Shown here: positions 5,110 through 58,924 of the stretch, in pieces
How positions within the stretch are numbered: the first letter of the stretch is position 1
Layout of the letters: the number at the start of each line of letters is the position of its first letter
Origin: a bacterium
GTDB lineage: Bacteria > Zixibacteria > MSB-5A5 > GN15 > FEB-12
Assembly: GCA_030605565.1 (NCBI GenBank)
Contig: JAUWIB010000089.1
Location: 12,197-76,196 of the forward strand
DNA: 64,000 nt
Direction: 5' to 3'
The notes under the pieces: model-generated
The model's database searches: none
Told to the model about the DNA's origin: nothing
Seen by the model: the letters and a program-made list of their open reading frames with translations, nothing else
Position numbers and translations under genes: made by a program

Positions 5110-7023
5110 TCACTTCACCCGACGCATTTCGGCTATTATGTCGTCCGGGGGGATCACGCCTTGTCGGATCATTCGCACCTGGCCGTTTGAGTCGAGCAGC
5201 AGGGTTGTGGGCAATGAGTATTGCTTGAGCCCGAAGTGTTCCATGAAGTTCCTGGTGATTTCGGAGTCGGCCTTTTCCAATTGTACTCGTATCGCCATGA
5301 AGCGCTCCGCCTCGCGGATAACGTTGGGATGACCGAACGTCTTTTTCTCCAGCACGCGACAGTTGGCGCACCAGGTTGCCCAGGTGTCGATCAACACCGG
5401 TTTGCCCTCGGCCTTGGCGCGCGCGAGTCCATCGTCCAGCCCGGATACCCAGGTGATACCGTGCTCAGTTTGCTCGGAAGTTCCCTGAGAGACTGTCGGA
5501 AGCCATTGGGAAGCGGGGGGCAGGATCAACCCCTCCCGGAGGACGGTCCCTATGAGCAGATAGGCGCCAATGAGAAAAGCGACGAAACCGAGGAATTTCT
5601 TCAGGCGCGCGAACATGCCCGACTCGGCGGTGAGACGATCCAGTCCGCCTCCAAAGACACCAAAAGCCAGCAGGACCAGACTGGTCAGGATAGCTAAGAT
5701 GACCGGCGATATGATCGTTCGAAGGAAGAACAGCGCCATCAACAAAAGGACGAAGCCGAAAAACTTCTTGACGGATTCCATCCATTCGCCGGCGTGAGGC
5801 AGCGAGTTGATAGCTGATGAAAACGTACCGATGATGAGAAACAGCGTGCCCAGCCCCAGGGCAAAAACGAACAACACCAAAAATCCGACAATCGGCGAGC
5901 CGTGCGTTGCGATGTACAAGAGGATGCCGGCGACAAACGGTCCCACGCACGGCGACACCACCAGCGCAGCCACCACACCCAGGACGATGGCCCCACCGAT
6001 CCCACCCCCCCCCTTGGTAGTCCCCAGTTTCTGTCTCAGGAACATCGGTACCTGCAACTCGTACAGCCCGAACATAGATAACGAGAACACTACAAAAACC
6101 ACCGCGATCCCGATTACGACGGGTGTGCTGGCCAGCCAGGCGCCGAAAACACCGCCCACCAACGATACGATCAACCCCATGATGCCATACACGACTGCCA
6201 TGGATCCCACATAGAAGAGAGACATGATGAAACCGCGCCCAAGCGAGCGCTGCTGTCCGGCGAAAATGCTGACCGTGATAGGGATCATCGGATAGGTACA
6301 GGGGGAGAACGACAGAAGCAGTCCGGTCACGAAAGCCAGTCCCAGGGTGAGGAAGTATCCCCAAAACCCGTAGCGGTCGACCAGCCGCTGGAGATCGTTT
6401 TCCGGTTCAACCACGCCGGCGGCATCCACCGGAGACTCCTCTGTCTGTTCACCACCGGCGAAAATGTCGGCGTGGGTCGGTGGTCCCAGTTGACCGACAG
6501 TTATCTCGAGGGTTGCCTCAAGGGTTTCGGGTGCGCGGCATGTTGAATCATCGCAGGCCTGATAGGTGAAACTGAGCGGCAACTGGCGCCTGCCATCGTC
6601 CATATCCACATCCAGCGTCACGGCAAACATCACCACCACGCGATCACTGTAAACAGACATCTTCTCATCTAACAGCGCGGCGTCATGGCCCGCCGGATAC
6701 TTGATGTCGTGAGGCGTTACACCGCTGATGGTGTCACACGAAAGCTGTACCGGGATCAGCCAATCCTGGTACGGCTGAGCCGAATTAATGTGCCAACCTG
6801 GTTTTATGTCCGCGATCAGTGCCGCCTGATAGGTTTCGCCGGCCTCAATGCTCTCGAATGAAAGAGCCGTTGCTATCTCAACCAGTTGTTCTTCTTCGAT
6901 CTGTTGAAAGCCTGAAAACTCTACTTCAGCTTGTGTAGTGCTGTAAAGCAGGTAAAGCGAAAGAAGTGCCGATGCCGCGACCATTCGGAGGCGCAGCCCG
7001 TTGCAGCTTTTCATGATTTGCAT
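5110..7023 (-). CDS. dsbD: Thiol:disulfide interchange protein DsbD (three-domain)
   Basis: There is a signal peptide, then an N-terminal DsbD-alpha-like domain (KPGWHINS, YQACDDSTC). A multi-TM core carries SPCTYPMIP and SPCVGPF. The C-terminal thioredoxin fold carries WATWCANC. Confidence 0.85.
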   Translation of the reverse strand: MQIMKSCNGLRLRMVAASALLSLYLLYSTTQAEVEFSGFQQIEEEQLVEIATALSFESIEAGETYQAALIADIKPGWHINSAQPYQDWLIPVQLSCDTISGVTPHDIKYPAGHDAALLDEKMSVYSDRVVVMFAVTLDVDMDDGRRQLPLSFTYQACDDSTCRAPETLEATLEITVGQLGPPTHADIFAGGEQTEESPVDAAGVVEPENDLQRLVDRYGFWGYFLTLGLAFVTGLLLSFSPCTYPMIPITVSIFAGQQRSLGRGFIMSLFYVGSMAVVYGIMGLIVSLVGGVFGAWLASTPVVIGIAVVFVVFSLSMFGLYELQVPMFLRQKLGTTKGGGGIGGAIVLGVVAALVVSPCVGPFVAGILLYIATHGSPIVGFLVLFVFALGLGTLFLIIGTFSSAINSLPHAGEWMESVKKFFGFVLLLMALFFLRTIISPVILAILTSLVLLAFGVFGGGLDRLTAESGMFARLKKFLGFVAFLIGAYLLIGTVLREGLILPPASQWLPTVSQGTSEQTEHGITWVSGLDDGLARAKAEGKPVLIDTWATWCANCRVLEKKTFGHPNVIREAERFMAIRVQLEKADSEITRNFMEHFGLKQYSLPTTLLLDSNGQVRMIRQGVIPPDDIIAEMRRVK

Positions 7024-9850: not shown

Positions 9851-10189
9851 TTAAGCCAACACCTTTTGCAAACGGTCGGTCAATTGCCCCTTGGGCACGG
9901 CGCCCACAATCTGGTCAACCACTTCGCCGTTTCGGAAAATTAACAGAGAGGGGATAGACATGATATTGTACTTGCCAGCCGTCTGGTTATTGGAATCAAC
10001 ATCTAACTTGGTGACTTTCAGTTTGTCGCCGTATTCGCTCGCAATTTCCTCAAGGACCGGCGCAATCATCTTGCACGGGCCGCACCAGGTAGCCCAGAAG
10101 TCGACGATAACGGGGATATCTGACTGAAGTACTTCGGCCTCAAAACTGTCGTCGGTAATCACAATGGGTTTGCTCATCGGTTCCTCCAA
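9851..10189 (-). CDS. trxA: Thioredoxin
   Basis: It has [10 protein letters not shown] and is 112 aa, with a typical TrxA layout ([13 protein letters not shown]...[12 protein letters not shown]). Confidence 0.95.
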
Positions 10190-22485: not shown

Positions 22486-23397
22486 ATGTTCAATGCTTTT
22501 CAGAAGCTGAAGGATTCCCTCAGTCGCACCAAGGACAATATCCTCGGAAAGATTTCGGAGGTCGTTCTTCGGCGGCGCATTGATGATGATCTGCTCGAGG
22601 AGATCGAGGAGATCCTGATCGAGGCCGATGTCGGGGTGCCCGCGACCATGAGACTGATCGAAAGCGTCAAGAAGAGAGCGCGCGAGCGGAAATTGTCTGA
22701 GGGGAGCGAAGTTGTGGGGCTGTTGAAAGAAGAGATTGCCGCCATCCTGACGCAGAGTCAGGCGGTCGGTTCCGCCGATTCTTCCGGGCCGGTCATCTGG
22801 TTGATCGTCGGTGTCAACGGCGTCGGCAAAACTACCACGATCGGCAAACTGGCTACGTTGTTTGCCGCTGAAGGCAAGAATACGATGATTGCCGCCTGCG
22901 ACACATTCCGGGCGGCGGCGATTGAACAGATAGCTATCTGGGCGGAACGCAGCAACGTCGAAATGGTTCGCTCTCAGAGTGGCTCCGACCCTGCAGCCGT
23001 GGCTTTTGATGCCGCCAAAGCGGCGAAGGCCAGAGGCGTCGATATACTTTTGGTTGATACGGCCGGCCGTTTGCACACCAAGGCAAATCTGATGGAAGAG
23101 TTGAAAAAGATCCGTCGAGTCGTCAACAAGGCGGCGCCGGATGCGCTGGTTTGCAGCAAGTTGATTATCGATGGTTCCACCGGTCAGAATGCTCTGTCAC
23201 AGGTCAAGGTGTTCACCGAGGCGGTCGGGTGTGATGGGATCATCGTGACCAAGCTGGACGGCACGGCCAAGGGTGGCGTCATGATCGCCGTCTCCGAGGA
23301 ACTGGGTGTCCCGGTGGAGTTCATCGGACTGGGAGAGGGGATCGACGACCTGCAACGGTTTGACCCGGAGAAGTTTGCTGAGGCGCTGTTCGCATGA
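22486..23397 (+). CDS. ftsY: Signal recognition particle receptor FtsY
   Basis: GVNGVGKTTTIGKLA, DTAGRLH and TKLDGTAKGG are present. It is a short form without a long A-domain. Confidence 0.95.
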   Translation: MFNAFQKLKDSLSRTKDNILGKISEVVLRRRIDDDLLEEIEEILIEADVGVPATMRLIESVKKRARERKLSEGSEVVGLLKEEIAAILTQSQAVGSADSSGPVIWLIVGVNGVGKTTTIGKLATLFAAEGKNTMIAACDTFRAAAIEQIAIWAERSNVEMVRSQSGSDPAAVAFDAAKAAKARGVDILLVDTAGRLHTKANLMEELKKIRRVVNKAAPDALVCSKLIIDGSTGQNALSQVKVFTEAVGCDGIIVTKLDGTAKGGVMIAVSEELGVPVEFIGLGEGIDDLQRFDPEKFAEALFA

Positions 23398-23792
23398 AAA
23401 CACTAACGGTCGAGACGCAAGTGCGGCGGCAGATGATCGATGTTACGGCGCGGGTGCAGGAGATTGTCACTGAGAGCAATCGCCCCTCAGGCCTCGTCGT
23501 CTGTTTCGTCCCGCACACAACTGCCGCCATAACCATCAATGAAAACGCCGACCCGGATGTTGCTCGCGACATTCTGTACAAGCTGGGCAAAGAGATTCCG
23601 CCGGACGACGGTTACCATCACCTCGAAGGTAACTCGGACGCCCATATCCAGGCGTCACTTTTGGGCGCTTCGCAGCAGATACTGTTTGAGAATCGTCGCC
23701 TGGTGCTGGGACGCTGGCAGGCTGTTTACTTCTGCGAATTCGACGGGCCTCGACAGCGCCGCCTGATTGTCGAGGTTATGCCGTTTGCTTAA
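23394..23792 (+). CDS. yjbQ: YjbQ/UPF0047-family protein (secondary thiamine-phosphate synthase-like)
   Basis: HTTAAITINENADPDV, HLEGNSDAHIQASLLG and LGRWQAVYFCEFDGPR are present. It overlaps ftsY by ATGA. Confidence 0.85.
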   Translation: MKTLTVETQVRRQMIDVTARVQEIVTESNRPSGLVVCFVPHTTAAITINENADPDVARDILYKLGKEIPPDDGYHHLEGNSDAHIQASLLGASQQILFENRRLVLGRWQAVYFCEFDGPRQRRLIVEVMPFA

Positions 23793-24255
23793 GGTCCACC
23801 TTATCTGTGTGGGGAAAGATAAGGATGCATGGATCACCGACGGGTGTGCTCATTTCAAAAAGTTGCTTTCGCGGTATGCTGAGGTTTCCTGGCGCGTCCT
23901 GCCTGCGGAGAAGTCCGGTTCCGGGTTGTCGGCTTCCGAAGTGAAGAAGCGAGAAGCGATCCGCATACTGAAAGCTCTCGACAAGGGGTTCCATATCGCT
24001 TTGGCGGACAAGGGTACTGACCTGGATTCGCACGGACTGGCCCGACAACTGGAAAACTGGCAGACGCGCTGCGGCGGTTGTATTGAGTTTATCATTGGTG
24101 GGGCTTACGGTCTTGATGAGTCTGTCCTGAATCGCGCGGATTTGGTACTGTCGTTGTCGCCGCTTACTTTTTCGCACCAATTGGTGCGGCTGGTTCTGCT
24201 GGAGCAGCTCTACCGCGCCTTCTCTATTCTGCACAACACCGACTATCACAAATAG
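23785..24255 (+). CDS. rlmH: 23S rRNA (pseudouridine1915-N3)-methyltransferase RlmH
   Basis: (M)LKVHLICVGK..., FIIGGAYGL and LSLSPLTFSHQLVRLVLLEQLYRAFSI are present. The start is uncertain: TTG at 23785, or the track start TTG at 23767. Confidence 0.85.
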   Translation: MLKVHLICVGKDKDAWITDGCAHFKKLLSRYAEVSWRVLPAEKSGSGLSASEVKKREAIRILKALDKGFHIALADKGTDLDSHGLARQLENWQTRCGGCIEFIIGGAYGLDESVLNRADLVLSLSPLTFSHQLVRLVLLEQLYRAFSILHNTDYHK

Positions 24256-24256
24256 A

Positions 24257-24284
24257 AACGTCCGGCCGTGTGCGACCGGACGTT
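24257..24284. terminator. Hairpin between convergent rlmH and the giant gene (possible terminator)
   Basis: AACGTCCGG-ccgtgtgcga-CCGGACGTT. A T-rich run follows only in the minus-strand direction (tttctattt). Confidence 0.35.
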
Positions 24285-24311
24285 ACAGGGAAAAAGATAC
24301 GAGGTGGAGAT

Positions 24312-27300
24312 TTATTTCAGCAGAACCATTTTCTTGGTATCGGTGAAGCTGCCGGCATCGAGGCGATAGAAGTAAACGCCTGATGCAGCCGTGCCGCCAC
24401 GGGAATCGAGACCGTCCCAGGTTATCGTCTGATGACCGGCCGGGGCGTGCCCGCTGAAGGAGCGCACCAGCTTACCGGTGACATTGTAGATGTGAAGCGT
24501 CCAGTCGGCCGTCTGCGGCGTGGAGAAGCTGATTGAGGTCGCCGGGTTGAACGGATTCGGGTAGTTTTGCGACAGTGAGAACTCGGTCGGCAACTCGCCG
24601 CCCTTGTTGACACATCGGTAGGGCCTGCCCTGGTAGTCGACGATCTCCTTGCGCTTCAGAATCGGCGCCGTGTCACCGCTATACGTAATCTCAACCAAAC
24701 GGTGCTCGCCGGGTTCGATTAGGTCCGTTCCGAGATTCCAGATGAGGATCCGCAGTTCGCCGTCAACAACAGCGTGCATGAGATTCATATCTTCGGCGGC
24801 AGTTGCCAATTGAGGTATGTCGATTGTCGTCGCGTCGTTCACGTCGAAGACGAACAGAGCCGCGCCGATTTCGCCGACCGCATCAGTGGATACACTAAGG
24901 TGACCGTCGCTGTATTCGGTCGTGACAAACAACTCCTCCGGATAAGGGCTCAACTTGGGAATCGGGTCGGCATCGCCAATGATGACCCGGATTAAGAGCA
25001 CCAGGTCGGCTACGCTGAGGGTGACACCGTCGGCGTTGACGTCGGTGGCGGCAATCTGACCGGCCACATTCACCACGAACACGCTTAGGCCCTTGACGAA
25101 GTAGTTGGAGAAGACTACCGCGTCGGCGATCTCGTAAGCCACGCCGTTGAGGTTGACGTCACCGCGATCGTCCAGCGAATCGGGATGGGTGACGCAGATG
25201 CCGCCGTTGATATACTCGATACAGCGGATCGGGTCGATCTTGCCGCCGCCGAAACAGTCATCACGGGTACCCATGCCGAAGGGACGAGACGACTCCGGGT
25301 AGTTGATGTCGTCGTTTTCATCCCAGATCATCGAACCCTCGAAGTTGAGAATACGTACATCCACGAACAGATCGTAACCGGAGGTGTCGGAGAAAGCATT
25401 GTCGGCGCAGGAATACCATGCAAAGTTGATCGGCAGGAACTGATCGCCAAGGTTCTGGTCATTGGCCACCTGGAATTGCATCTCGACCAGGACACCGTTC
25501 GGGAACAAAGTCTCGTGCGGAGGGTGATTGGGACCGTTGTTTATGTCGGCGATTCCGACCAGACGAACCAGACCGGAAGGGCAGGAGGCGCCGCAGTCAG
25601 CGGCGCCGATGCGGTACTCGAAGTACTCCCAGCCATCCACCGCAGAACCTTCGATGCCGGCATAAGTGAACGCCATTACCGAGGCGTCGTAGGCCAGCAG
25701 GATGTCAAAGCCGCCCAGCCACTCGCGCGTCTCGATGTTCAGGTCAACGGTCTTAAGAAGACCGACCGGGGTGCAACTGCCGCCGTCGATCGACACCCGC
25801 ACGCAGACGTCGCAGTCCTCAAGTTCCTGAATGTCGACGAAGAAAGACCCGACAGTGATGTTGCAGCCGTCGTCCACTTCGAAGCAGAACTCGTACAGTC
25901 CGAAGGCGTCCGGCAGGAAGCAGACCCGACCGCTGTCGTCGGTAATCAACTCGAACCCATCAGGGCCGCAGGTTTGTGTCAGGGTCACGCTGTCTTCAAG
26001 ATCGGTGGCGTAGATGCCGTCGACGCAGACCAGGGTCGTGTCGTCGCTACAGCGTTCAAATACCAGCGTTTCTTCCGGCAGGAACAACTGAGGCGCCTGA
26101 TCACCGGTGACGTTGATTGTCGTCACACAGGTGTCGGCATCGCAGCGCCCGGTTGCAATCAGGGTGATATCATAGGAACCGGGCTGGTCGATTATCACGC
26201 AAACTTCGCCATCGGCATAGGATCCTTCGGGTTCCACGGTGATTATCGGATCAGTTCCGGTCACTGTCACCGGATAGCACAACTCAACCGGATCGGTCAG
26301 GCAGAGCAGGGTGTCAATGATGCCGGGGCAGGTGATGACAGGGGGCTGGGGCACCTGAATATCGAGATCAAACTCGCAGGTGTCAACGCCGCACTGGGCT
26401 TCGGCTGTCACCATAATGTTATACAGTCCGGTCTCATCGATATAAACACACAGCTCGCCGGTGGCGGGGTCGTATGAACCGTTCGGCAAAACCGTTACGA
26501 CCGCATCGCCTGGACTGATCGGCATCGTGATGCAAATGGAATCCGCTGTACACAGAGTGTCGTATACCGTCGTGGGAGGACAAATGATCAAGGGTGACCC
26601 ACCCGGCAAAATAGTAACAACCGTCGTGTCGCAGGCTGTTTCACCACAGGCGTCACGCACGGACACTACGACAGTGTGAATACCGAAGTCGGTCGGGATG
26701 AAACATACTTCATCTTCAACGATCTGACCGTGCGAAGATGACACCTCTATTATGTTATCATCAACATCACTATAGGTGATAGGGATACAGACCTCGTATG
26801 GCTCGCACACGGTCAAACTGGTGTCCGGGCCGGAAACAATCTCCGGAGGGCTGTTGAAGTCCGCGGTAACCGTAAAGCTGCAAGTGTCGGAGTTGCAGAT
26901 CGACGTAGCGATCATCGTGATCTCAAGTGACCCGGCCTCGAGCACCGGTACACAAACCTGATTCTCGCTCAGGTACGCCGGTTCCGTCACACTTACCATT
27001 CCTACGGATGCTGAGACTGTATAGTCCAGACACAGGGTGTCGGGACCACAGACCAGCAGAGCGGTGTCGGCGGGGCAGGTGATTACCGCCTCGTCCGGAA
27101 TGGTAACCTCAACATACACCACGCAGGTATCACTGTTGCACTCGGCATTGCCGATCACCGTGATCATGTAGATACCGGCAGTGTCCGCCGGGAAGCAGAG
27201 TTCGCCCTCGCCGTAAGTGCCGATTGACGAAGTGACGGTGAAGTTATTGCCAATGATTTCAAGTGGTACGCAGACTTCGGTCGGACCGCAGATCGGTTCG

Positions 27301-30300
27301 GCTTGTAAGGTATCCTGCGGACAGTTGATCTGCACGAATTCACCGATGTTAACCGTGACACAAGCATCCAGCGTGTCGGCCAGACCGCATACATCGATAG
27401 CTATAACCTCGACGCAGTAAAACCCGGAGCTTTCGGCGGTGAAACATATTTCGCCGGTCGCTTCGTCGTAGTAGCCGATGTCGGTCAGTACCTCAACCAG
27501 ATTGTCTTCGGCGTCACCAAATACTATAGGTACGCAGATGTTGGGCTGGCAGGTGGTGATAACAGAGTCGGCCCAATCGTAGATGATAAACGGCGCAGTA
27601 TTGAATTCAATCGTGACCGCCATAGTGTCGCTGTCCTCTTCGCCGCATTCATCGACAGCCGTCACGATCAGGTTGTAAACGCCGGCTGTGTCAGCGGTGA
27701 AGCAGACGCGGCCGTGCAGCGGATCGTACAAGCCGCCGGTGACCATGACATCAGCGATATTTCCGTCCGGATCGTACACACCCACCGGCACGCAGACCTC
27801 CGACGGATCGCAGAACATGATGCTGCTGTCGGGTGGCAGGAGAACGAGGGGATCGTGGTTGCACTCGATTGTCACTGTGAAACTGCAACTGAAGCTGCCG
27901 CAAGGGGTGACAACCTCGAGGGTGACTTGGTTGGTATTACCACACTCGGAGATGAAACAGACAGATTGCAGTTCATCATCGAACCAGGTGTTGATGCCGG
28001 TCACGTTGACGGTTGCTATCTCAGGGATGCCGCCGATCGGCAGGCAAAAAGTGTCACCGACACAAGTGAAGATAGTCGTGTCGTTCGGACAGACAAGCTC
28101 TATCCCCTGGTCGGTCAGGATTGTCACATAAGCGGTGTCGGTATCGACCATGTTGCAACTGTCGGTAACCGTCACGATAATCTCGAAAGTGCCACTGTCG
28201 TAAGGTGTGAAACAGACCTGCCCGTCGCTGTACGAACCGCGGTTGACATCAATACTCTGGATATTGTCATCCGGATCGGAGATGTCTATCGGCAGGCATA
28301 TCGCCTGCGGATAGCACAGGTATACCGTTGTGTCGGGCATTCCTGTCGCGACCGGCGGGCTGTTGATGTCCACGCTTATGTTGATGGTGTCGGCGGCCGT
28401 CAGGTCGCACGTATCAACCACTGTCACGATCATGGTGTAATTGCCCGGTCCGTCAGGCATGAAGCAGACTTGCGAGGTAACCTCATTGTAGATACCCAGG
28501 CTGGTTGTTAATGACTGGTAAACGCTGATCGTGTTGACATCGACGCAGATTTCGCCCAGTTCACACAAGTCGAGATCGAGATCGTCACCAAGATCGACAA
28601 ATGGCGGCGCGCCGGAGGTCACAGTGACTGTCACCGTATCCGCCGCCGTTGCACCGCACTCGTCGGTGGCTTCGACGATCAACTCGTAGGCGCCGTCATG
28701 GTCAACCTCGAAACAGACCTTGCCGGTCTGCGGATCGTAACTGCCGAGATTCGGAGTTACGCTAAGCAGGTTGCCGTCCTCGTCACCAACGGTAACGTCG
28801 ACACAAACTTCGGTGAGGCCGCACAAACCGACCTCGAAATCGGCGCCAAGATCAACATACGGCGGTTCGTTCAGGTCAACCGTGACCACCGTTGTGTCAC
28901 TTGCAGTAGCGCCGCAGGAATCGGCCGCAGTGACGATTATCATGTAGCTGCCGGCAGTGTCGGCGTTGAAGCAGACCTGCCCGGCGTCGCTGTCATATGT
29001 CCCATTATTGACTGTGACAGTGAGAACATCCATGTCGGCATCCGTGACGGCGACATCAAAGCAGATTTCCGACGGTTCGCAAAGGAACGCTGCAAAGTCA
29101 TCTGCCGTGGTGACACTTGGCGCGTGGTTGCCCTCGATTGTCACCGGCACGATGCAGGTGTCGGAGTGGTCACAACTGTCCACGACCTCAATGACGATGT
29201 CAAACTGGTCATTGCCGACGGCATCGAAGCAAACCGATCCCGCGTCGTAGATTGCATTCTGCGAGAGGATGTTCACCGTCAGGTCCGGATCGCCGGGGTC
29301 GAAGTCAAAACAGAGTGTCTGCGGTTCACATATCGAGAACAACTGAGGTTCCGGACACTCAACGACCGGGGGGCGGTCGAGCAGTATGGTAATCCTGATC
29401 GTATCCGGATCGCACGGCGGACACTCGGGGCATGCTTCGCTGTAAATCTTGGTGCCGGTACAAGGATCGGTAACACAATATTCAAATATGTATGTGGCTG
29501 AGTCGACGTCGTCCGGCATGAAGCAGGTCTGTCCGGAACTGTCGGTCAACATCGTAAACCCGCCCGGACCGGATTCCTGGGTGATGCTAAGAATATCGCC
29601 GTCAGCATCGGTTGCGACAACGTCGAAACAGATCTCCTGAATGTTGCACAGATAGATGGTAGAGTCAAACGTCAGGAGAATCGGCGGACTGTTTATTGCT
29701 ATCGTGTCGTAGACAAAACCGGTATCGCCGGCGCAAGTGTCATAGGCCGCCACTTCAAAGGTGTAGACACCGGATGTATCCGGGAAGTAACTGATCAATC
29801 CCGTCTGGGTATCGACAGTGCCGACGCCGGACAGCATGATGAAGGTCATCGGGTCGCCATCGGCGTCAAAAGCAGTAACGCCAACCTCGCGGAGTTGGTC
29901 GGGTTCACACAAGGTCGCTGAGGTAAACCGATCATAGACAATCGGCGGTGTATTGATCTCGATGGTCACTGTGAATTCGGCGTCACAGTAGGCGCCGCAA
30001 CTATCGAAGCAGCGGACAGTGATAGTACCGCCGACGCTCTTGTCCGGAGTATAGCACCAGTAACCGTCAACGATTTCACCCACACCGGAGAAGACCTCAC
30101 AACGATCGAAATTGCCGTTAGGGTCGGTAGCCGACACCGGTAGACAGATTTCTTCAGGTTCGCAAAGGACGATAGTGGTATCATTCGGCGGGTTGCAGAT
30201 GGGCGGGTCGTTGAGATCAACGGTCACGATAGTCTCACAAGAACTCTCGGCGCCGCAAGCGTCGAGAGCTGTCAGGACGATGACGTTAGGTCCTTCAATC

Positions 30301-33300
30301 GGCGTGAAGCAGACAGTGCCGTTAGCCATATTGACCTGAGCGCCGTTGACTGTTACGATAACAGACTCCAGCGCACCCTCCGGGTCGGACGCCGCAAAGC
30401 CACCGATGCAAACGTCACTCATGTCGCAGGTCCAGAGGGTGGTGTCACCGGGGCAGGTGACTATCGGCGGCTGATTGATTTCAAAGGTAACGGTGAATGT
30501 CTGGTCGCAGTAGGCACCGCATGAATCGCTGGCGCGAACTGTGACCGTGACTGTTTCGGCGCCTACTGGCGTGTAGCACCACTGGTCGCCGTTGATAGCG
30601 CCGGGACCGGAGATCAGTTCCCATCCGTAGAGGTTGCCGTCCGGGTCATCGGCTACGAGTGGCAGGCAGAGTTCCTGCGGGCCGCAGTTGAAGAGGGTGG
30701 TGTCGGTTGGCATCAGGCAAACCGGCTCGCTGTTGAGAATAACCTCGATGACGGCATCGCACCAACTGGTATCACCGCAATCATCAACGGCATAGAGAAT
30801 CATCGAGTTGGCGCCTTCGGTCGGCGCGAAGCAGACGCTGTTTTCGATGACCGGGTAGTCGCCGCCGTTGACGGTGACCCATATAGTGTCAAGATTCCCG
30901 TCCTCATCTATCGCGCCAAAACCCTCGACACAGATTTCATCATCCAGGTTGCATACGAAAACCGGTTCGAGGAGATCGACACAGGTAACCGCCGGTGGTG
31001 CGTTCAGGTCGAACGTTACGGTGAAGCTGCTTTCACAGGTAGCGCCGCATTCATCGGTGCACTGGATTGTGACGGTGATAGTCTCATCGCCGGACGGAGT
31101 GTAAGTCCAGAGTCCATTGATGAGTTGTCCCGGACCGCTGACGACTGAACAACCGGTCAGGTTGCCGTCGATGTCGTCGGCACTAATCGGCAAGCTTACT
31201 TCGGCCAAATCACATTGGAAAATCGTAGTGTCGTTCGGTGTGTTGCAGGTCGGCGGAGTATTCGGCAGAATCGGGACAACCGACTGACACTGGTCCTGAG
31301 CGCCGCAGCTATCAATTGCTGTCACCACAATGATATTGTCACCGGCCATCGGCGTGAAACAAATCTGTCCTTGATCCCATGTGACCGGCACTCCGTTGGC
31401 GGTAACAGTAACGCTGGCCAGATTTCCGTTGGCATCAGAGACCAGGAAGTTATCCAGGCAAATCTCGGAGAGATCGCAGACCAATACAGGATCAGGGAAG
31501 TCGGGACAGGCGACTGTCGGCGGCTGGTTCATCTCCAGCGTTACGGTGAATGTCTGGTCGCAGTATGCGCCGCACGAATCCAGAGCGCGCACGGTGACAG
31601 CTAATTGTTCCGCCTTATCTCCGCCATAGCACCACTGGTCACCGTTAAGGTAGCCGGGACCGGAGATGAGATCCCATCGGTCAAAGTTTCCATCGCCATC
31701 GCCGGCCGTCAGCGGAAGGCAGATTTCGATCAAGTCGCACAGGAATAGTGTAGTGTCGTTCGGACCTTCGCAGACCGGCTCTGAGTTGAGGGTAACATCA
31801 ATAACTGCACTGCAGATGCTCATGGCGCCGCAACTGTCGGTCGCCAATAGCTGAACTTCATTGAAACCCTCTATCGGCGGGAAGCAGATGGAACCATCAC
31901 TAAGTGGAGTCGACTCGCCATTGGCTATGGCAATTACGGACTCAAGATTGCCGTCCTCGTCAGTAGCTGCGAAACCGCTGAGGCTGAGGCAGAGTTCTTC
32001 AAGGTTGCACACCAGAATCGGATCGAAGGTGTCAGGACAGGTTACCACGGGATGTGCGTTTAAATCAAAGTCGACCGTAAAGCTGCTCTCGCAGGTTGCG
32101 CCACAGTCGTCGGTGCACTGTATTGTGACAGTAACAGTCTCATCACCGTCCGGAATATAGAACCAATTGCCGTCCACAATCTCGCCGGGACCGCTCGTGA
32201 TCGTGCAACCGATCAGGTTGTCGTCAACGTCCACGCCCGACACCGGCAACGAGATGCCCACCGCACCACAGTAGAAGATACTCGTGTCGTTGGGGACATC
32301 ACAGACAGGAGCCTCGTTGAAGAGCACGGTCACGAATATCTCATCGGCATCCTCACCGCCGCAGTCATCAACCGCCGTCACCACGACCTGATACGTACCG
32401 GCGGTGTCGGCGGTGAAGCAGACTTGTCCGGTGGCGGCGTTATAGATGCCACCGTCGACTTGGATGTTTGATATATTGTTATTAGCGTCGCTGATGCCGA
32501 CCGGCAGGCAAATAGCGCTCGGACTACACAGCATCATAGTCGTATCCGGCGGCAACAGCACCAGCGGGTCAACGTTACATTCGACCGTCACCGTGAACTC
32601 ACAGGTGTAAGTGCTGCATGGCGTGTGCACCATGATCTGGATGTTGTTCTGATTGGAACACTCAGTGTAAAAACAGACCGAATGCGTGGCGTCGTCGTAC
32701 CAGGTGTTGAGTCCCAGGACGTCAACAGTGATATCATCCGACCGGGGAATGCCGCTCAACGGGAGACAGATGGTATCCTGCACGCAGACAGACAGGGTAG
32801 TGTCATTAGGACATTCGATGACGATATCCTGGTCGGTCATAACGGTGAGGTTGATAGTAGTCGAAGCGGACTCTCCGCATTCATCAGTGGCCGTCACGAC
32901 TATTTGGTAGTTGCCCGCGGCGTAGGGTGTGAAACAGACCAGTCCGTTATCGTAGTAACCCTGACTGGTAGTAATTTCGACAATATTCTGGTCGGCATCA
33001 TTGATATCAACCGGCAGACAGATTGCCTGCGGGAAGCACAGGTAGAAGGAAGTATCAGCGACCGCGCTCACTGTCGGCGCCTGGTTGATCGACACCGTGA
33101 TATCCATCGTGTCCGCAGCCACCAGACCACAGGTGTCGGTGACCTCGACGATCAAGTTGTACAGCCCGTCACCTTCGGGTGTAAAACAGACCTGGCCGGT
33201 CTGAACGTCGTAAGCGCCGAGATTAGTTGTCAGCGATCCGTACTCGGCGATAGTAGTAACGTCCACGCAAATCGATTCCCCCCCGCAAAGAAGGGTATCG

Positions 33301-35162
33301 AAATCGTTCGGCAGAATCACAAACGGATCCACACCGGGATCGGCGGTGATTGTTACCGTATCTACTGCCGTGACGCCACAGGCATCAACGGCCTCGACAA
33401 TCAGATCGTAGGAGCCGGGCTCCTGAATGGTCATGCAGACCTGACCCTCGGCAACGTGCCCCAGGTTGGTAGTAACGTCGACGATGTTGTCATCGACATC
33501 AATCAAATCAAGAGCGATGCAGATATCGCGTGGATAGCAGGGATAGATGGTCGTGTCAACACCCAGCGAAACTTGTGGAGACTGATTGAATGTCACCGTC
33601 ACGGCGACCGTGTCAGACGCTGTCTGCCCGCAGGTGTCGGTCACTTCGACGATCATGTCATAGACGCCGTCCATCTCAGGAGTAAAACAGACCTGTCCGA
33701 CATCAGCGTTATAGATTCCAAGGTTGGTGGTGAGATTGGCGAAGGCATCGATAGTAAGCACGTCGATGCATATCTCAGTTGGCTCACACAAGAATCGCTC
33801 AAAGTCGGGGCCGAGCTCGACAAACACTGTCGGTCCCGGGTCGGCGGTGATGTTCATAGTTGCAACCGAGGTCTCGCCGCAATTGTCAATAACCGTAACT
33901 TCCAACGGGTAATCGCCCGGCTGGTTGATTGTGATGCAAACCTGACCGTTGGCATAAGCACCGATACTCGGTGTAATACTCACGATGTTGTCGTCAACGT
34001 CGGCTACCGTCACCGGCACGCAGACTTCCTTCGGATAGCAGGGATAAACCGTCGTGTCCGGCGGGAGATCGACTGTCGGATCACTGTTCATAGTAATCTC
34101 AAAGGTAGCGGTGCATTGGTCGCTCTGACCTGTGCTGTCGGTTACCGTTACATTGATGTAATAGTATCCGGTAGTGTCGGGGGTGAGGCAAAGCTCTCCG
34201 GTAACCGGATCGATAGTGCACGGCAACTCACCGGGAATCGTGAACAATAGATCGCCGGCGCCGTCATAGACTACGGTCGTCGGTAAGCAAACCGTCTCAC
34301 CGGCGCAGACAAAAAACTGACCGGTCGAACATTCGATCTCAACAGGATCCCAGATTATGTCGAACCTGGTGCAGTCGATCGAGGCGAGAATCTTGACGCG
34401 ATTATCAGGGTTGCAAGCCGAGTTGGGCGGGTCATCCGGTCCCGGCTGATCTTCTCCGGCGTACTTGACGCCGATAGTGAACAGTCCGACCTCGGTCGCT
34501 GTCAGGGTGGCCGTGGCCACGCCGTTCTCGTCGGTGACAGCAGTTGCTGTCGGGTCACCCTCTATCGGTATCCCACATTCTTCCTGGTGGAGGTAGAACC
34601 CGATCAGCCGATCCGGCATTGGGGCGTAAACTCCATCGCAACAGTCCTGCTCCAGCAGAACCGTCACCTCGTATGGCACCTCGGTCATGATCGTAGCCGG
34701 CATTGATATGATGGTCAAACGACTATCGATTTCGGTCAGAGGCGCACTGGCCTCAACATCGTAGCCAGAGGCGGTGACGATAATCGGCAGCCAGGCGTGA
34801 AACTCGTCTTCGACTACCCATAGCGCCTTGATGGCGCCATCGGCAGTAGCCTGGACGTCGAACTGTGCCAGTTCAACGTTGCTGCCCGACTGATTCTGGT
34901 GCAACACCAGTATCGAAACCGTCTCATCGGAGGCAAAACCACTCCCCTCAATGAATACGGTATCTCCCTGGGCACGACCTGCCGACTGCAAGTCCAGTCG
35001 CGGTGATTCATCACCGACGACAGGCAGTGGCGACTCCGATCCGGCTGGGTTGGTATCTCCGGCAGCAAAAACCGGCAAGGCACAAAAGACCAGGCCGATA
35101 GCTATAAACAGTAATCTCTGACACCTCGATCTTATCATCAGGTCCTCCAAAAAATTCATCAA
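24312..35162 (-). CDS. Giant secreted Cys-rich tandem-repeat surface protein with C-terminal cohesin-like domain, dockerin and T9SS C-terminal sorting domain
   Basis: The product is 3,616 aa with a signal peptide (LLFIAIGLVFCALPVFAAG). Roughly 30 modules of ~95 aa share PxDTT..C....(I/V)C(L/V)P...D.D.N...G.VCF.P...G.Y..(I/V)V.(A/V).D.CG. The cohesin-like block reads VRVSIDGG...FDILLAYD. The dockerin has two DVN(L/A)(N/D)G loops. The CTD reads LSQNYPNPFNPATSISF...GVYFYRL. Confidence 0.9.
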   Translation of the reverse strand: MMNFLEDLMIRSRCQRLLFIAIGLVFCALPVFAAGDTNPAGSESPLPVVGDESPRLDLQSAGRAQGDTVFIEGSGFASDETVSILVLHQNQSGSNVELAQFDVQATADGAIKALWVVEDEFHAWLPIIVTASGYDVEASAPLTEIDSRLTIISMPATIMTEVPYEVTVLLEQDCCDGVYAPMPDRLIGFYLHQEECGIPIEGDPTATAVTDENGVATATLTATEVGLFTIGVKYAGEDQPGPDDPPNSACNPDNRVKILASIDCTRFDIIWDPVEIECSTGQFFVCAGETVCLPTTVVYDGAGDLLFTIPGELPCTIDPVTGELCLTPDTTGYYYINVTVTDSTGQSDQCTATFEITMNSDPTVDLPPDTTVYPCYPKEVCVPVTVADVDDNIVSITPSIGAYANGQVCITINQPGDYPLEVTVIDNCGETSVATMNITADPGPTVFVELGPDFERFLCEPTEICIDVLTIDAFANLTTNLGIYNADVGQVCFTPEMDGVYDMIVEVTDTCGQTASDTVAVTVTFNQSPQVSLGVDTTIYPCYPRDICIALDLIDVDDNIVDVTTNLGHVAEGQVCMTIQEPGSYDLIVEAVDACGVTAVDTVTITADPGVDPFVILPNDFDTLLCGGESICVDVTTIAEYGSLTTNLGAYDVQTGQVCFTPEGDGLYNLIVEVTDTCGLVAADTMDITVSINQAPTVSAVADTSFYLCFPQAICLPVDINDADQNIVEITTSQGYYDNGLVCFTPYAAGNYQIVVTATDECGESASTTINLTVMTDQDIVIECPNDTTLSVCVQDTICLPLSGIPRSDDITVDVLGLNTWYDDATHSVCFYTECSNQNNIQIMVHTPCSTYTCEFTVTVECNVDPLVLLPPDTTMMLCSPSAICLPVGISDANNNISNIQVDGGIYNAATGQVCFTADTAGTYQVVVTAVDDCGGEDADEIFVTVLFNEAPVCDVPNDTSIFYCGAVGISLPVSGVDVDDNLIGCTITSGPGEIVDGNWFYIPDGDETVTVTIQCTDDCGATCESSFTVDFDLNAHPVVTCPDTFDPILVCNLEELCLSLSGFAATDEDGNLESVIAIANGESTPLSDGSICFPPIEGFNEVQLLATDSCGAMSICSAVIDVTLNSEPVCEGPNDTTLFLCDLIEICLPLTAGDGDGNFDRWDLISGPGYLNGDQWCYGGDKAEQLAVTVRALDSCGAYCDQTFTVTLEMNQPPTVACPDFPDPVLVCDLSEICLDNFLVSDANGNLASVTVTANGVPVTWDQGQICFTPMAGDNIIVVTAIDSCGAQDQCQSVVPILPNTPPTCNTPNDTTIFQCDLAEVSLPISADDIDGNLTGCSVVSGPGQLINGLWTYTPSGDETITVTIQCTDECGATCESSFTVTFDLNAPPAVTCVDLLEPVFVCNLDDEICVEGFGAIDEDGNLDTIWVTVNGGDYPVIENSVCFAPTEGANSMILYAVDDCGDTSWCDAVIEVILNSEPVCLMPTDTTLFNCGPQELCLPLVADDPDGNLYGWELISGPGAINGDQWCYTPVGAETVTVTVRASDSCGAYCDQTFTVTFEINQPPIVTCPGDTTLWTCDMSDVCIGGFAASDPEGALESVIVTVNGAQVNMANGTVCFTPIEGPNVIVLTALDACGAESSCETIVTVDLNDPPICNPPNDTTIVLCEPEEICLPVSATDPNGNFDRCEVFSGVGEIVDGYWCYTPDKSVGGTITVRCFDSCGAYCDAEFTVTIEINTPPIVYDRFTSATLCEPDQLREVGVTAFDADGDPMTFIMLSGVGTVDTQTGLISYFPDTSGVYTFEVAAYDTCAGDTGFVYDTIAINSPPILLTFDSTIYLCNIQEICFDVVATDADGDILSITQESGPGGFTMLTDSSGQTCFMPDDVDSATYIFEYCVTDPCTGTKIYSEACPECPPCDPDTIRITILLDRPPVVECPEPQLFSICEPQTLCFDFDPGDPDLTVNILSQNAIYDAGSVCFDAVGNDQFDIVIEVVDSCDHSDTCIVPVTIEGNHAPSVTTADDFAAFLCEPSEICFDVAVTDADMDVLTVTVNNGTYDSDAGQVCFNADTAGSYMIIVTAADSCGATASDTTVVTVDLNEPPYVDLGADFEVGLCGLTEVCVDVTVGDEDGNLLSVTPNLGSYDPQTGKVCFEVDHDGAYELIVEATDECGATAADTVTVTVTSGAPPFVDLGDDLDLDLCELGEICVDVNTISVYQSLTTSLGIYNEVTSQVCFMPDGPGNYTMIVTVVDTCDLTAADTINISVDINSPPVATGMPDTTVYLCYPQAICLPIDISDPDDNIQSIDVNRGSYSDGQVCFTPYDSGTFEIIVTVTDSCNMVDTDTAYVTILTDQGIELVCPNDTTIFTCVGDTFCLPIGGIPEIATVNVTGINTWFDDELQSVCFISECGNTNQVTLEVVTPCGSFSCSFTVTIECNHDPLVLLPPDSSIMFCDPSEVCVPVGVYDPDGNIADVMVTGGLYDPLHGRVCFTADTAGVYNLIVTAVDECGEEDSDTMAVTIEFNTAPFIIYDWADSVITTCQPNICVPIVFGDAEDNLVEVLTDIGYYDEATGEICFTAESSGFYCVEVIAIDVCGLADTLDACVTVNIGEFVQINCPQDTLQAEPICGPTEVCVPLEIIGNNFTVTSSIGTYGEGELCFPADTAGIYMITVIGNAECNSDTCVVYVEVTIPDEAVITCPADTALLVCGPDTLCLDYTVSASVGMVSVTEPAYLSENQVCVPVLEAGSLEITMIATSICNSDTCSFTVTADFNSPPEIVSGPDTSLTVCEPYEVCIPITYSDVDDNIIEVSSSHGQIVEDEVCFIPTDFGIHTVVVSVRDACGETACDTTVVTILPGGSPLIICPPTTVYDTLCTADSICITMPISPGDAVVTVLPNGSYDPATGELCVYIDETGLYNIMVTAEAQCGVDTCEFDLDIQVPQPPVITCPGIIDTLLCLTDPVELCYPVTVTGTDPIITVEPEGSYADGEVCVIIDQPGSYDITLIATGRCDADTCVTTINVTGDQAPQLFLPEETLVFERCSDDTTLVCVDGIYATDLEDSVTLTQTCGPDGFELITDDSGRVCFLPDAFGLYEFCFEVDDGCNITVGSFFVDIQELEDCDVCVRVSIDGGSCTPVGLLKTVDLNIETREWLGGFDILLAYDASVMAFTYAGIEGSAVDGWEYFEYRIGAADCGASCPSGLVRLVGIADINNGPNHPPHETLFPNGVLVEMQFQVANDQNLGDQFLPINFAWYSCADNAFSDTSGYDLFVDVRILNFEGSMIWDENDDINYPESSRPFGMGTRDDCFGGGKIDPIRCIEYINGGICVTHPDSLDDRGDVNLNGVAYEIADAVVFSNYFVKGLSVFVVNVAGQIAATDVNADGVTLSVADLVLLIRVIIGDADPIPKLSPYPEELFVTTEYSDGHLSVSTDAVGEIGAALFVFDVNDATTIDIPQLATAAEDMNLMHAVVDGELRILIWNLGTDLIEPGEHRLVEITYSGDTAPILKRKEIVDYQGRPYRCVNKGGELPTEFSLSQNYPNPFNPATSISFSTPQTADWTLHIYNVTGKLVRSFSGHAPAGHQTITWDGLDSRGGTAASGVYFYRLDAGSFTDTKKMVLLK

Positions 35163-35344: not shown

Positions 35345-35372
35345 AATATAGCCTATCTGGCTGAAAAGTCAA
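35345..35372 (-). promoter_or_regulatory. Candidate sigma70-type promoter of the giant surface-protein gene
   Basis: On the minus strand: TTGACT (35372-35367), a 16-nt spacer, then TATATT (35350-35345). The 5' UTR is about 180 nt. Confidence 0.35.
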
Positions 35373-35640
35373 CCACGCAATAGTCTCACGGCCTATGACG
35401 CAAGAATCGGGCCGAGCCGGTAATCCGTTAAAATGCCGACGGTTACAAGGCTTATCTGAACAGGTTTGCAGCCGTCTGCCTTTTGTATGAAAACAACTTG
35501 CAGGTTTATGCCGATTGGCTGCTCCGGAACTGGAATATCCGAAGGATTTGGGAGCTGATTGACCGATTGGCCCGGAGGCGGGAATCTGCCGGCTGGGTGG
35601 GCTTGGTGGTTCGGTACTCGGCAGTCCCCGTAAGTGGAAA

Positions 35641-35693
35641 CCCCTAGTCCGAAGGACCGCCCTGAGCGGAGTCGAAGCGCGGGTTGCGACAGT
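35641..35693. repeat. Family C element (inverted orientation)
   Basis: cccctagtccgaaggaccgccctgagcggagtcgaagcgcgggttgcgacagt. It is contiguous with the family B copy. Confidence 0.75.
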
Positions 35694-35748
35694 CTTGTAG
35701 GTCAGGTTCCTTGGAACCTGACGCCAAGAAGTAGCTTGCTACCTTGCC
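35694..35748. repeat. Family B hairpin repeat plus tail
   Basis: cttgtaggtcaggttccttggaacctgacgccaagaagtagcttgctaccttgcc. Confidence 0.85.
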
Positions 35749-35916
35749 TCTCGGGATCACAAGAATCTTGACCTGCGAGGCTGACGAACACGAAAACGGT
35801 GGTTTCTCAACGCGCCCGTTCGCGGAAATGACATGGCGTGAACCATACGCAAGAAAAACGGGAGCGACGCGAGACGTCGCTCCCTCAACCATGGGCAGTT
35901 GTCAAACCCCGACGGG

Positions 35917-57904: not shown

Positions 57905-58924
57905 ATGAATGACACAATAGATGAGGATGAAATGCTTCTGAAACACAATAGATCGCTGCCACTGAGACCGCCCAGGTATTTAAGAACAGCGCTTCTCGGA
58001 CTGGTATTGCTTTGTATTGGCGTCGCCTGGATGCCTCACAACGCCTTGGCTCAGGCCAAAGTAGGCACTACCGGCGCCCAGTTCCTGGAGCTTGGCGTCT
58101 CGGCGCGGGCGATGGGTATGGCGGAGGCCTTTACAGCGGTCACGGACGACATCATGGCGGTATACTACAACCCGGCCGGTCTTACCTCGCTCTATGGCCG
58201 TGAGGTGGCATTCACTTACATCGACATGCCGGCCGATGTCGGCTACGGTTTCGGTGCTATTGGTCTGCCGCTGGAATCAATCGGCGGTGTCCTGGGGATA
58301 AGCGCGTACGGCTTGTCCTCCGGTGAAATGATCGAACGCACTTGGAGCAAGGGCCAACAAGAGGGTACCGGGCGGACTTTCGGATGGAACGACTTCGCTA
58401 TGGGTGTCAGCTATGGCCGGTATCTGACCGACCGGTTTTCGGTGGGTTTCACGGTCAAGTTTGTCGGTCAATTCGTTCACGACTACAGCGCCAGCGGTTG
58501 GTGTGCTGATGTCGGCACTATGTACGACACCGGCCACCGCGGCTTCAGAATCGCTATGATGATCAGTAATTTCGGGCCGGATATGACTATGATCAGCCAG
58601 TCCTATCCGTTACCGATCAACTTCAGGTTTGGTGGTTGCATCAACCTGGTTGAACAGGCGGATCACCTGGTGACCTTCGCGGCCGAGGGCTCCCACCCCT
58701 CGGACAACCTCGAGAAGTACAACACCGGTCTGGAATATACCTTTCGGGACCGTTTCTCACTGCGCGCGGGGCGCCGCTTCAACTATGACGAAGACGGCTT
58801 CACGGCCGGCGGCGGTCTTGCCTTGCCGTTTGGAGAAGAGAGTGAGATTCGTATCGATTACGCCTTCCAGGATTTCGGAATCCTGACGCAGGTTCACCGT
58901 TTCAGTATGGCCTTTGCGTTTTAG
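57905..58924 (+). CDS. PorV/PorQ-family outer membrane beta-barrel protein
   Basis: After the signal peptide comes GTTGAQFLELGVSARAMGMAEAFTAVTDDIMAVYYNPAGL, the signature N-terminal block of PorV/PorQ-type barrels. The protein ends in ...FSMAFAF. Confidence 0.7.
   Translation: MNDTIDEDEMLLKHNRSLPLRPPRYLRTALLGLVLLCIGVAWMPHNALAQAKVGTTGAQFLELGVSARAMGMAEAFTAVTDDIMAVYYNPAGLTSLYGREVAFTYIDMPADVGYGFGAIGLPLESIGGVLGISAYGLSSGEMIERTWSKGQQEGTGRTFGWNDFAMGVSYGRYLTDRFSVGFTVKFVGQFVHDYSASGWCADVGTMYDTGHRGFRIAMMISNFGPDMTMISQSYPLPINFRFGGCINLVEQADHLVTFAAEGSHPSDNLEKYNTGLEYTFRDRFSLRAGRRFNYDEDGFTAGGGLALPFGEESEIRIDYAFQDFGILTQVHRFSMAFAF

Follow-up and report, generated by a model that had tools for sequence, protein, structure and literature searches.

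A giant cysteine-rich tandem-module protein of Zixibacteria with a type IX secretion domain and a predicted disulfide-stapled stalk

What kind of surface protein is encoded by a 10.8-kb cysteine-rich gene of an uncultured phylum, how would it leave the cell, and what would its cysteines hold together? The question is raised by a 64,000-nucleotide stretch of Zixibacteria DNA (GenBank assembly GCA_030605565.1, contig JAUWIB010000089.1, positions 12,197 to 76,196; hereafter the window), in which a single unbroken open reading frame (ORF) occupies positions 24312-35162 of the minus strand and comprises 3,616 codons counted from a TTG. The translation contains 196 Cys (5.4%), 363 Asp and 200 Glu (together 15.6%), and 19 Lys and 45 Arg (together 1.8%). 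The reading that we favor, with a probability of roughly 70%, is that of a chromosomal, monocistronic Zixibacteria gene encoding a cell-surface stalk or adhesin-type protein, which would be a type IX secretion system (T9SS) cargo, stapled by disulfides, and equipped with a cohesin–dockerin base.

Secretion signals and the module array

The C-terminal T9SS type A sorting domain (amino acids 3531-3616; 24315..24572, minus strand) is real as judged from sequence matches above curated cut-offs: TIGR04183 matched amino acids 3534-3613 of 3616 with 39.3 bits (cut-off 23), and PF18962 scored 30.6-34.6 bits (cut-off 27). FlgD_ig gave 31.7-36.3 on the same domain, and the NCBI names of relatives include 'T9SS type A sorting domain-containing protein [Zixibacteria]'. 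An earlier annotation of the locus made from the sequence alone (the original prediction) had described a giant, Cys-rich tandem-module surface protein routed to the T9SS, and the T9SS part of this description is borne out by the TIGR04183 score.

At the other end, a Sec-type signal peptide was judged by eye from the translation (amino acids 9-33 in the numbering from the TTG, MIRSRCQRLLFIAIGLVFCALPVFA; 35064..35138, minus strand). It has the form MIRSR + LLFIAIGLVFCALPVFA + AG, with a basic n-region, a hydrophobic core, and an A-rich end. The head that follows (amino acids 34-272; 34347..35063, minus strand) is common to the giant protein and its closest full-length relative, P0142, and probably contains two immunoglobulin-like (Ig-like) domains. 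Its family matches were weak (Big_1, Invasin_D3, Neocarzinostatin, and Filamin at E 3e-4 to 0.14; filamin repeats of the PDB at E 0.03). The Ig-like N-terminal region of the original prediction is thus retained through these weak matches, and its signal peptide stays a judgment by eye.

The bulk of the protein is an array of 33 tandem Cys-containing Ig-like modules (amino acids 273-3119; 25806..34346, minus strand). A hidden Markov model (HMM) iterated from one module converged on these 33 copies, each with a domain E-value of 1e-13 to 1e-30. The modules are 78-103 amino acids long, mostly 83-89 and about 86, and carry 2-8 Cys each. An estimate of roughly 30 modules of ~95 amino acids had therefore been right about the tandem arrangement and wrong in both numbers, while the motifs quoted with it were all found in the module consensus (P.DTT..C......IC.P; D.D.N; G.VCF.P; G.Y...V.A.D.CG; VT...N..P).

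Protein identity among the 33 modules averaged 29% in pairwise comparison and did not exceed 67%. Modules 3-8 have counterparts in modules 21/22-26, the pairs 7/25, 8/26, 6/24, and 5/23 being 49-57% identical, and modules 9-17 alternate between two subtypes. P0142 has 24 modules compared with 33 here and is colinear with modules 18-33 in the same order; thus, the array grows and shrinks by blocks.

Module 22 was modeled with AlphaFold2 (AF2) on the alignment of all 33 modules, which gave a seven-strand sandwich with a predicted local distance difference test score (pLDDT) of 93.9. By this model, the module fold is an Ig-like sandwich, distantly Big_9-, PKD-, and cadherin-like. Foldseek comparison of the module model with the PDB returned nothing at E<=0.001, the nearest folds being the cadherin-like domain of SraP, the PKD domains of collagenase and AAVR, the cadherin-like domain of dystroglycan, and Rib, with template modeling (TM) scores of 0.6-0.68. 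When the module sequence profile was compared with the PDB, the best matches were SiiE BIg domains (E 1.4e-7), followed by PKD domains, in alignments that covered the C-terminal half of the module only.

On the modules, Pfam gave only summed weak matches, namely Big_9, Big_13, PKD-like, and Cadherin, the last with an E of 0.002 that falls short of its cut-off. Big_9 (PF17963) reached 91.2 bits on the whole protein (cut-off 23.6), summed from five stretches of which one was full length (amino acids 1301-1383). Three motifs of the module consensus are shared with Big_9-type domains, namely D-x-D-G-N after strand B, Y-x-x-x-V-x-A-x-D-x-x-G, and an ending of V-T-V...N-x-x-P. Tested singly, 6 of the 33 modules matched Big_9 at E<=0.01 (best 2.1e-5), and on this sequence evidence the modules appear to be a distant branch of Big_9 and not typical members. 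The NCBIfam tandem-95 repeat (NF012211) was rejected, with 21.1 bits against the 90 required, 3 of 33 modules at E<=0.01, and a period here of ~86 amino acids. HYR (PF02494), to which the skeleton had been likened, was also rejected, as neither the whole protein nor any single module matched it at E<=1. Judged by these searches, no curated family covers the module, in agreement with the original prediction that it could not be placed in a named family.

Cysteine pairing and the acidic cluster at module junctions

Cysteine pairing was analyzed in two sets of modules. The first comprised 1,180 distinct modules from 50 non-redundant giant relatives (~1,200 modules in the junction test), and the second comprised 960 modules from 80 GTDB loci and overlaps the first in species. 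The junction test allowed for small alignment shifts, and Cys are numbered as in module 22. Four Cys are near-invariant (C12, C18, C48, and C67), and 84% of the 1,180 modules contain an even number of Cys. C18 and C48 co-occur with a phi coefficient of 0.93-0.98 over the two sets (0.98 in the 1,180 modules). Further pairs were found among the 1,180 modules for C3-C73 (phi 0.90) and C58-C76 (phi 0.99), and a four-Cys set (C1/C33/C63/C71) also co-occurs.

The partner of C12 was found in the neighboring module. Counts are given as both present/first only/second only/neither. Within one module, C12(n) and C67(n) gave 1074/39/21/0 (phi -0.03), whereas C12(n) and C67 of the next module, C67(n+1), gave 1044/0/2/14 (phi 0.93). 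The reverse control, C67(n) with C12(n+1), gave 1027/20/42/0 (phi -0.03), and the forward test repeated on the second set gave 790/0/0/10 (phi 1.00). At least seven unrelated junction contexts are represented among the 14 double losses. The early Cys pair formerly proposed for each module was accordingly dropped, because C18 varies with C48, and C12 with C67 of the next module.

The two ends of the array behave in the same manner. C67 is missing from the first module in 27 of 50 proteins compared with 20 of 1,150 other modules, and module 1 of the giant protein has no C67. Where C12 is present in the last module, the cassette that follows usually opens with a cluster of Cys (DCDVC...C); where it is absent, this cluster is usually down to one Cys.

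In the model of module 22, every loop except one is four residues or shorter, so the strands alternate; the turn carrying C12 (after strand 1) and the F–G turn carrying C67 are therefore placed at opposite poles, C12 at the C-terminal and C67 at the N-terminal pole, with strands of 11-12 residues between them. All five co-varying intradomain pairs lie at matching heights in the model, and the invariant pair matches only across a junction. A C12–C67 bond within one module had been the first guess, by elimination, and it was overturned by the strand alternation together with the statistics of n versus n+1. The statistics and the model make it most likely that a C12(n)–C67(n+1) disulfide joins each module to the next.

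The alternative that survives best keeps the same T9SS surface protein and has all Cys either paired within their own module or free, the stalk being held straight by linker calcium and prolines only, as in cadherins and RTX adhesins. Intradomain disulfides are usual in Ig-like domains and three clear intradomain pairs are found here; the acidic cluster at the junction and the N-x-x-P linker are conserved, as this reading would expect, and the junction bond is deduced from co-occurrence and topology. We nevertheless consider it unlikely, since C12 and C67 of the same module are never lost together, whereas C12(n) and C67(n+1) were lost together in 14 of 16 cases in the first set and in 10 of 10 in the second, the first modules are preferentially without C67, and strand alternation sets C12 and C67 of one module at opposite ends of its strands.

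The same junction would gather a set of acidic residues. An acidic cluster resembling a calcium site had been noticed in the consensus, and it proved to be conserved and to extend beyond D25, D27, and N29 to D6, D65, and N82. Across the family, D6 is 74%, D25 70%, D65 74%, and N82 67% conserved, and D27 is 58% conserved (82% D/E/N) and N29 47% (64% D/E/N). The model predicts that all six belong either to the N-terminal pole or to the linker leading into the module, which places them at the junction of the invariant Cys pair. By analogy, the cluster would be a putative calcium-type site, for which these positions are suggestive only; linker calcium stiffens the stalk in the extenders of RTX adhesins (PMC7493085).

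The giant protein resembles these extenders (SiiE, MpIBP, MhLap, and AhLap; PMC7493085, PMC5466336) in having a long tandem Ig-like stalk with acidic residues at the junctions. RTX adhesins exit unfolded via a type I system, in contrast to the T9SS tag and the high Cys content with paired covariation found here; no RTX repeat family matched the giant protein, whose C-terminus is the T9SS domain. With the classical cadherin EC repeats, the modules share an Ig-like fold (Foldseek TM ~0.6), conserved acidic residues in the B–C and F–G regions, and an N-containing linker ending in P, predicted at the junction. Unlike cadherins, they gave no significant sequence match, and cadherins have no inter-repeat disulfides of this kind.

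The C-terminal cassette and the proposed assembly

The original prediction had missed a cassette of 410 amino acids that separates the array from the secretion tag and is composed of a cohesin fold, a dockerin-like segment, and a beta-sandwich. With the C-terminal 410 amino acids as the homology query, at least 300 homologs of the cassette were found, mostly Zixibacteria fragments named 'T9SS type A sorting domain-containing'. The AF2 model of the cassette (pLDDT 85.9) consists of two beta-sandwiches with a helical segment between them, and the assignments below combine this model with profiles of the homologs.

The first sandwich (amino acids 3121-3324; 25191..25802, minus strand; pLDDT mostly >90) has a cohesin fold, an assignment that is solid at the level of the structure model. 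Foldseek comparison of the cassette with the PDB gave 64 matches at E<=0.001. Cohesins predominate among the 50 matches listed, as they do at the top of the ranking, and integrin ectodomains account for most of the remainder. The cohesin matches included 3l8q (1.7e-9), a type II cohesin dyad that aligns over the whole cassette, 2xdh (2.5e-7), and 3ul4_A and 1aoh (target TM 0.77-0.79). Pfam Cohesin (PF00963) was matched by 13 of 36 homologous cassettes, with a best value of 4.4e-6.

The helical segment (amino acids 3327-3408; 24939..25184, minus strand) resembles a type I dockerin. It contains two D-x-N-x-(N/D)-G...D loops, GDVNLNGVAYEIADAVVF and TDVNADGVTLSVADLVLL, with a helix modeled after each. 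A profile of this segment from 24 homologs retrieved 3 of 177,635 PDB sequences, all of them type I dockerins and all weak (E 0.0088 for 3ul4_B, 0.12, and 0.68), and Pfam Dockerin_1 (PF00404) was weakly matched by 3 of 36 homologs. The dockerin assignment from these sequence comparisons is specific but weak. The second sandwich (amino acids 3410-3519; 24606..24935, minus strand; pLDDT 93-97) belongs to no family.

Cellulosomal type I pairs such as OlpA–Doc918 of C. thermocellum (PDB 3ul4) share with this cassette the cohesin fold (TM 0.79) and the two calcium-loop-plus-helix repeats. The differences are that cohesin and dockerin here are adjacent in one chain directly before a T9SS tag, that the giant protein has no SLH anchor, carbohydrate-active enzyme domain, or cohesin array, that the dockerin-like loops are one residue longer, and that the Pfam models miss both domains. 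A 3,755-amino acid scaffoldin with tandem cohesins, CBM2/CBM3 domains, and a T9SS C-terminal domain was proposed for 'Ca. Stygibacter' (Cloacimonadota) and read as an enzyme scaffold (PMC8542988). It comes from the same superphylum, is of similar size, and likewise combines cohesin with a T9SS C-terminal domain for surface attachment; the bulk of the present protein is, in contrast, an array of unnamed Cys modules with a single cohesin–dockerin unit at its base.

This precedent from a related phylum, together with the cohesin fold and the dockerin-like segment themselves, would allow the protein to be chiefly a scaffoldin-like part of a cellulosome-type extracellular enzyme complex, whose cohesin recruits dockerin-bearing enzymes. 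We regard this as improbable because the protein has no more than two cohesin-like domains and lacks any carbohydrate-binding or catalytic domain, the Ig-like array makes up 85% of it, no dockerin-bearing enzyme is encoded in the window, and the only dockerin-terminated relatives seen are giant module proteins themselves.

These relatives form a second class of giant module proteins from other contigs, assigned to Zixibacteria where named (P0126, P0161, P0163, P0194, and P0227). They have a VWA head, the modules, and extra Cys-rich HYR-like inserts; a T9SS tag is missing, and the C-terminus is a canonical type I dockerin (e.g., GDVDGSGEINVTDL...ADVNCDGYINQADV). The second class provides candidate partners for the cassette cohesin.

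From these parts, a mechanism can be proposed for the favored reading. The Sec signal peptide would carry the chain into the periplasm, where, following established T9SS biology, it would be folded and oxidized. Each module would form an internal disulfide between strands B and E (C18–C48), and subtypes would add C3–C73, C58–C76, or the C1/C33/C63/C71 set. C12, in a turn at the C-terminal pole of module n, would bond C67, in the F–G turn at the N-terminal pole of module n+1, and the same junction would gather D6, D25, D27, N29, and D65 with N82 of the incoming linker, similar to the calcium sites of cadherins and RTX extenders. The T9SS would recognize the type A C-terminal domain and pass the protein across the outer membrane in its folded state; by analogy with Porphyromonas, the tag would then be lost and the protein attached to the cell surface by its new C-terminus, with the N-terminus pointing outward. 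The outcome would be a covalently continuous, stiff, and very acidic rod of roughly 130 nm, assuming ~4 nm per module. At its base, the cohesin and dockerin (the fold resting on the structure model and the binding being inferred) would lock onto each other or link neighboring molecules, and the tag-less relatives ending in a canonical dockerin would be possible partners that tie the stalks into a surface network.

A bolder version holds that Zixibacteria build rods of ~33 modules, with a disulfide and a calcium-type acidic site at every junction, and that the rods are networked through a built-in cohesin–dockerin unit that also docks the dockerin-terminated tag-less giants. This version is tentative, and we put its chances somewhat below even. 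According to this version, stapled rods would depend on the folding of T9SS cargo in the periplasm ahead of export and could not be made otherwise.

Objections, genomic setting, and distribution

Several points weigh against the reading favored here. The Fisher p of 5e-30 for C12(n) with C67(n+1) overstates the number of evolutionary events because related sequences are not independent, and the bond is deduced from statistics and strand alternation. The habitats of Zixibacteria are often anoxic and reducing, and disulfides exposed there might not last. The calcium role of the acidic cluster is putative, as AF2 does not model ions. Pfam Cohesin and Dockerin did not match the giant protein, either whole or as the isolated C-terminal region, and the dockerin-like loops have 13 residues compared with the canonical 12, with the AF2 model at its weakest there (pLDDT 44-84). 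No adhesive or enzymatic domain was recognized in the head, and 'adhesin' is used by analogy. The T9SS core genes (SprA/Sov, PorK-N, and PorU) are not in the window, and one component of the system is seen there.

Another explanation of the Cys is that the conserved residues are free thiols that bind metals or metal-sulfide minerals or carry out surface redox chemistry in an anaerobe. The Cys density is unusually high for an extracellular protein, each junction brings two Cys beside several carboxylates, and Zixibacteria metagenome-assembled genomes (MAGs) commonly come from sediments and groundwater according to record titles. The chance that we allow this explanation is slim, because Cys are gained and lost strictly in twos, as also reflected in the even counts, the intradomain pairs occupy cross-strand positions typical of disulfides, and the modules have no conserved His and no CxxC or CxxCH motif. 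A DsbD-like protein-disulfide reductase (5110..7023, minus strand), with DsbD_N, DsbD_TM, and thioredoxin-like domains and an NF001419 score of 322 bits just below the cut-off of 330, and a thioredoxin of 112 amino acids (9851..10189, minus strand; PF00085, 117 bits) are encoded in the window, as the original prediction had pointed out, and give circumstantial evidence for a managed periplasmic thiol–disulfide system. Both genes lie 14-19 kb from the giant gene amid housekeeping genes (the DsbD-like gene 17 kb away), and a functional link to the giant protein is only plausible.

The integrity of the array was also considered, as an assembly artefact had been named as what would undo the finding. 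The best module-versus-module DNA match was 71% over 243 nucleotides, short stretches reached at most 76-87%, and Tandem Repeats Finder reported no array; repeat collapse is ruled out by this divergence. Two independent MAG contigs, L002 (92.6% nucleotide identity) and L003 (70%), are colinear with positions 20596-29817 of the window in single alignments, which cover the 3' 5.5 kb of the gene plus its flank, that is, the 3' half of the array and not the 5' half (modules 1-19). An artefact of collapsed or chimeric repeats, which metagenome-type, repeat-rich sequence and a 5' half with no independent colinear contig might suggest, is scarcely credible in view of modules of at most about 71-76% DNA identity over 74-243 nucleotides, an unbroken 10.8-kb frame, the two colinear contigs, the conserved order of modules 18-33 in P0142, and dozens of full-length relatives with 24-34 modules.

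The flanks of the gene were read from the sequence. A ribosome-binding site, GGAGGA (35148-35143), lies 4 nucleotides ahead of an ATG at 35138 (35138-35136; the two spanning 35136..35148, minus strand), and P0142 also begins with MIRS at the equivalent start; this ATG is therefore probably the true start, and the product would have 3,608 amino acids. A consensus scan found a sigma-70-like promoter candidate (TTGACT, a 16-nucleotide spacer, and TATATT; 35345..35372, minus strand), with 10 of 12 positions matching and as a consensus match only, downstream of a terminator-like hairpin of the Band7 gene (35884-35860). The scan also found a terminator-like hairpin with a 12-bp stem, 8 G-C pairs, and a weak T-tail (24257..24284, minus strand) directly 3' of the stop codon (24312-24314). 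The giant gene looks monocistronic, being framed by promoter-like and terminator-like sites of its own and lying downstream of a Band7 gene with a separate hairpin. An operon with the neighbors was rejected on the same sites and on the housekeeping nature of the neighbors, which are SMC, FtsY, YjbQ, and RlmH on one side and Band7, an ORF of unknown function, and UvrB on the other.

About 480 non-coding nucleotides (35373-35860, minus strand) separate the Band7 hairpin from the promoter-like site; they contain no ORF of at least 100 amino acids on the strand of the giant gene, no Rfam match, and no tRNA, and the Rfam and tRNA scan of the whole window likewise found nothing. No further module or cassette genes were found in the window, and an exact look-up of the window protein returned no identical record.

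Elsewhere in the window, a PorV/PorQ-family outer-membrane protein (57905..58924, plus strand; NF033709, 197.8 bits, cut-off 90) shows, by its sequence, that the organism carries at least one T9SS-type component. Beside it are genes for a 1,161-amino acid TonB-dependent-receptor-like protein with a CarboxypepD_reg domain (54396-57881, plus strand) and a 713-amino acid ORF with no family (58945-61086, plus strand), and the genes of 54396-61086 may together form a T9SS-related outer-membrane unit. An envelope cluster (42456-48744, plus strand) encodes an LpxL-like lipid A acyltransferase, a MacA/MacB-like adaptor and permease, a TolC-like channel, and lipopolysaccharide (LPS) heptosyltransferase II; it follows that the organism is a diderm making LPS, which fits T9SS anchoring. 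Two ORFs of ~330 amino acids flanking UvrB (36891-37904, minus strand, and 40281-41270, plus strand) matched no Pfam or NCBIfam family. A NotI-family restriction endonuclease (629-1534, plus strand; PF12183, 212 bits) and a convergent D12-class adenine methyltransferase-like ORF (1524-2384, minus strand) likely represent a restriction–modification pair. A 1,399-amino acid fusion of two BadF/BcrA-type ATPase domains and a CoA-enzyme-activase domain (DUF2229), typical of anaerobes, is encoded at 11788-15987 (minus strand).

The relatives of the giant protein are widespread. At E<=0.001, the module profile matched 31,129 representative proteins, of which 851 also reached E<=1e-30. The ~100 best matches are 1.5-4.1 thousand amino acids long with 13-34 full-length modules. 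Relatives that carry a name are entered as 'VWA domain-containing', 'hypothetical', or 'T9SS type A sorting domain-containing' proteins of Zixibacteria. Most relatives have a variable head, the module array, the cassette, and the secretion tag, with 4.4-7.4% Cys; near-Cys-free matches (0-0.1%) extend over just the C-terminal half of the module and represent generic Ig relatives. At least 367 cassette loci were found in GTDB species genomes, some of which have several, and nearly all are labeled Zixibacteria or have placeholder names. Of 81 loci fetched from Zixibacteria-labeled MAGs, in which the secretion tag was unscored, 78 have modules immediately upstream of the cassette. Many of the carrier MAGs among L004-L081 (GTDB scan) are titled 'uncultured Ignavibacteriales/Ignavibacteria' and one 'Candidatus Deferrimicrobium'; these titles may be placeholder or wrong labels or may reflect a real spread beyond Zixibacteria.

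The gene had been taken for an accessory, lineage-specific element. Its GC content is the same as that of its flanks, the rlmH-yjbQ-ftsY-smc order is conserved downstream of the giant gene in three related contigs, and a recently acquired island was rejected on these two observations. As the array with cassette also recurs in 78 of 81 loci, we regard the gene as phylum-specific and not as an accessory element at the level of the strain.

Giant T9SS cargo is known from SprB of Flavobacterium johnsoniae, a multi-thousand-residue, repetitive, beta-rich protein with a Sec signal peptide that is located on the outer membrane. SprB has a type B C-terminal domain, a dedicated PorP/SprF-like partner, and its own repeat family, and it drives gliding. 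The giant protein is likewise repetitive and beta-rich, with a Sec signal peptide (predicted here) and a C-terminal T9SS sorting domain; it differs from SprB in its type A domain (TIGR04183), the lack of an adjacent partner gene, its predicted Cys-stapled modules, its cohesin–dockerin cassette, and its phylum. A giant adhesin of the Gram-positive Mobiluncus mulieris is described (PMC10619420) with tandem Ig-like domains, each with intramolecular ester, isopeptide, thioester, or disulfide cross-links. The two proteins are alike in size, tandem Ig-like domains, and covalent cross-links including disulfides (predicted here), and they differ in that the invariant pair is here predicted to join consecutive domains. 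Within the library covered, our literature searches returned nothing linking Zixibacteria with dockerin, type IX secretion, or T9SS and nothing on interdomain disulfides of Ig-like adhesins.

Giant tandem-Ig surface proteins are common, and as a class the gene is therefore not new. What is new is a large unnamed module family that appears typical of an uncultured phylum and whose members NCBI names 'hypothetical' or by the secretion tag only; it would make a useful Pfam or NCBIfam model for annotating such MAGs. Also new is a very clean covariation signal for domain-to-domain disulfide staples along a whole stalk, where the known alternatives are stiffening by calcium only (type I secreted adhesins) and intradomain cross-links (Gram-positive adhesins). 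This signal ties the chemistry of the stalk to its secretion route, folded export through the T9SS. The cohesin–dockerin unit fused to a T9SS anchor suggests protein–protein assembly on the Zixibacteria surface. If the tentative picture of networked, stapled rods is true, it would represent an undescribed way to build and assemble a bacterial surface layer and would be a hallmark of the phylum.

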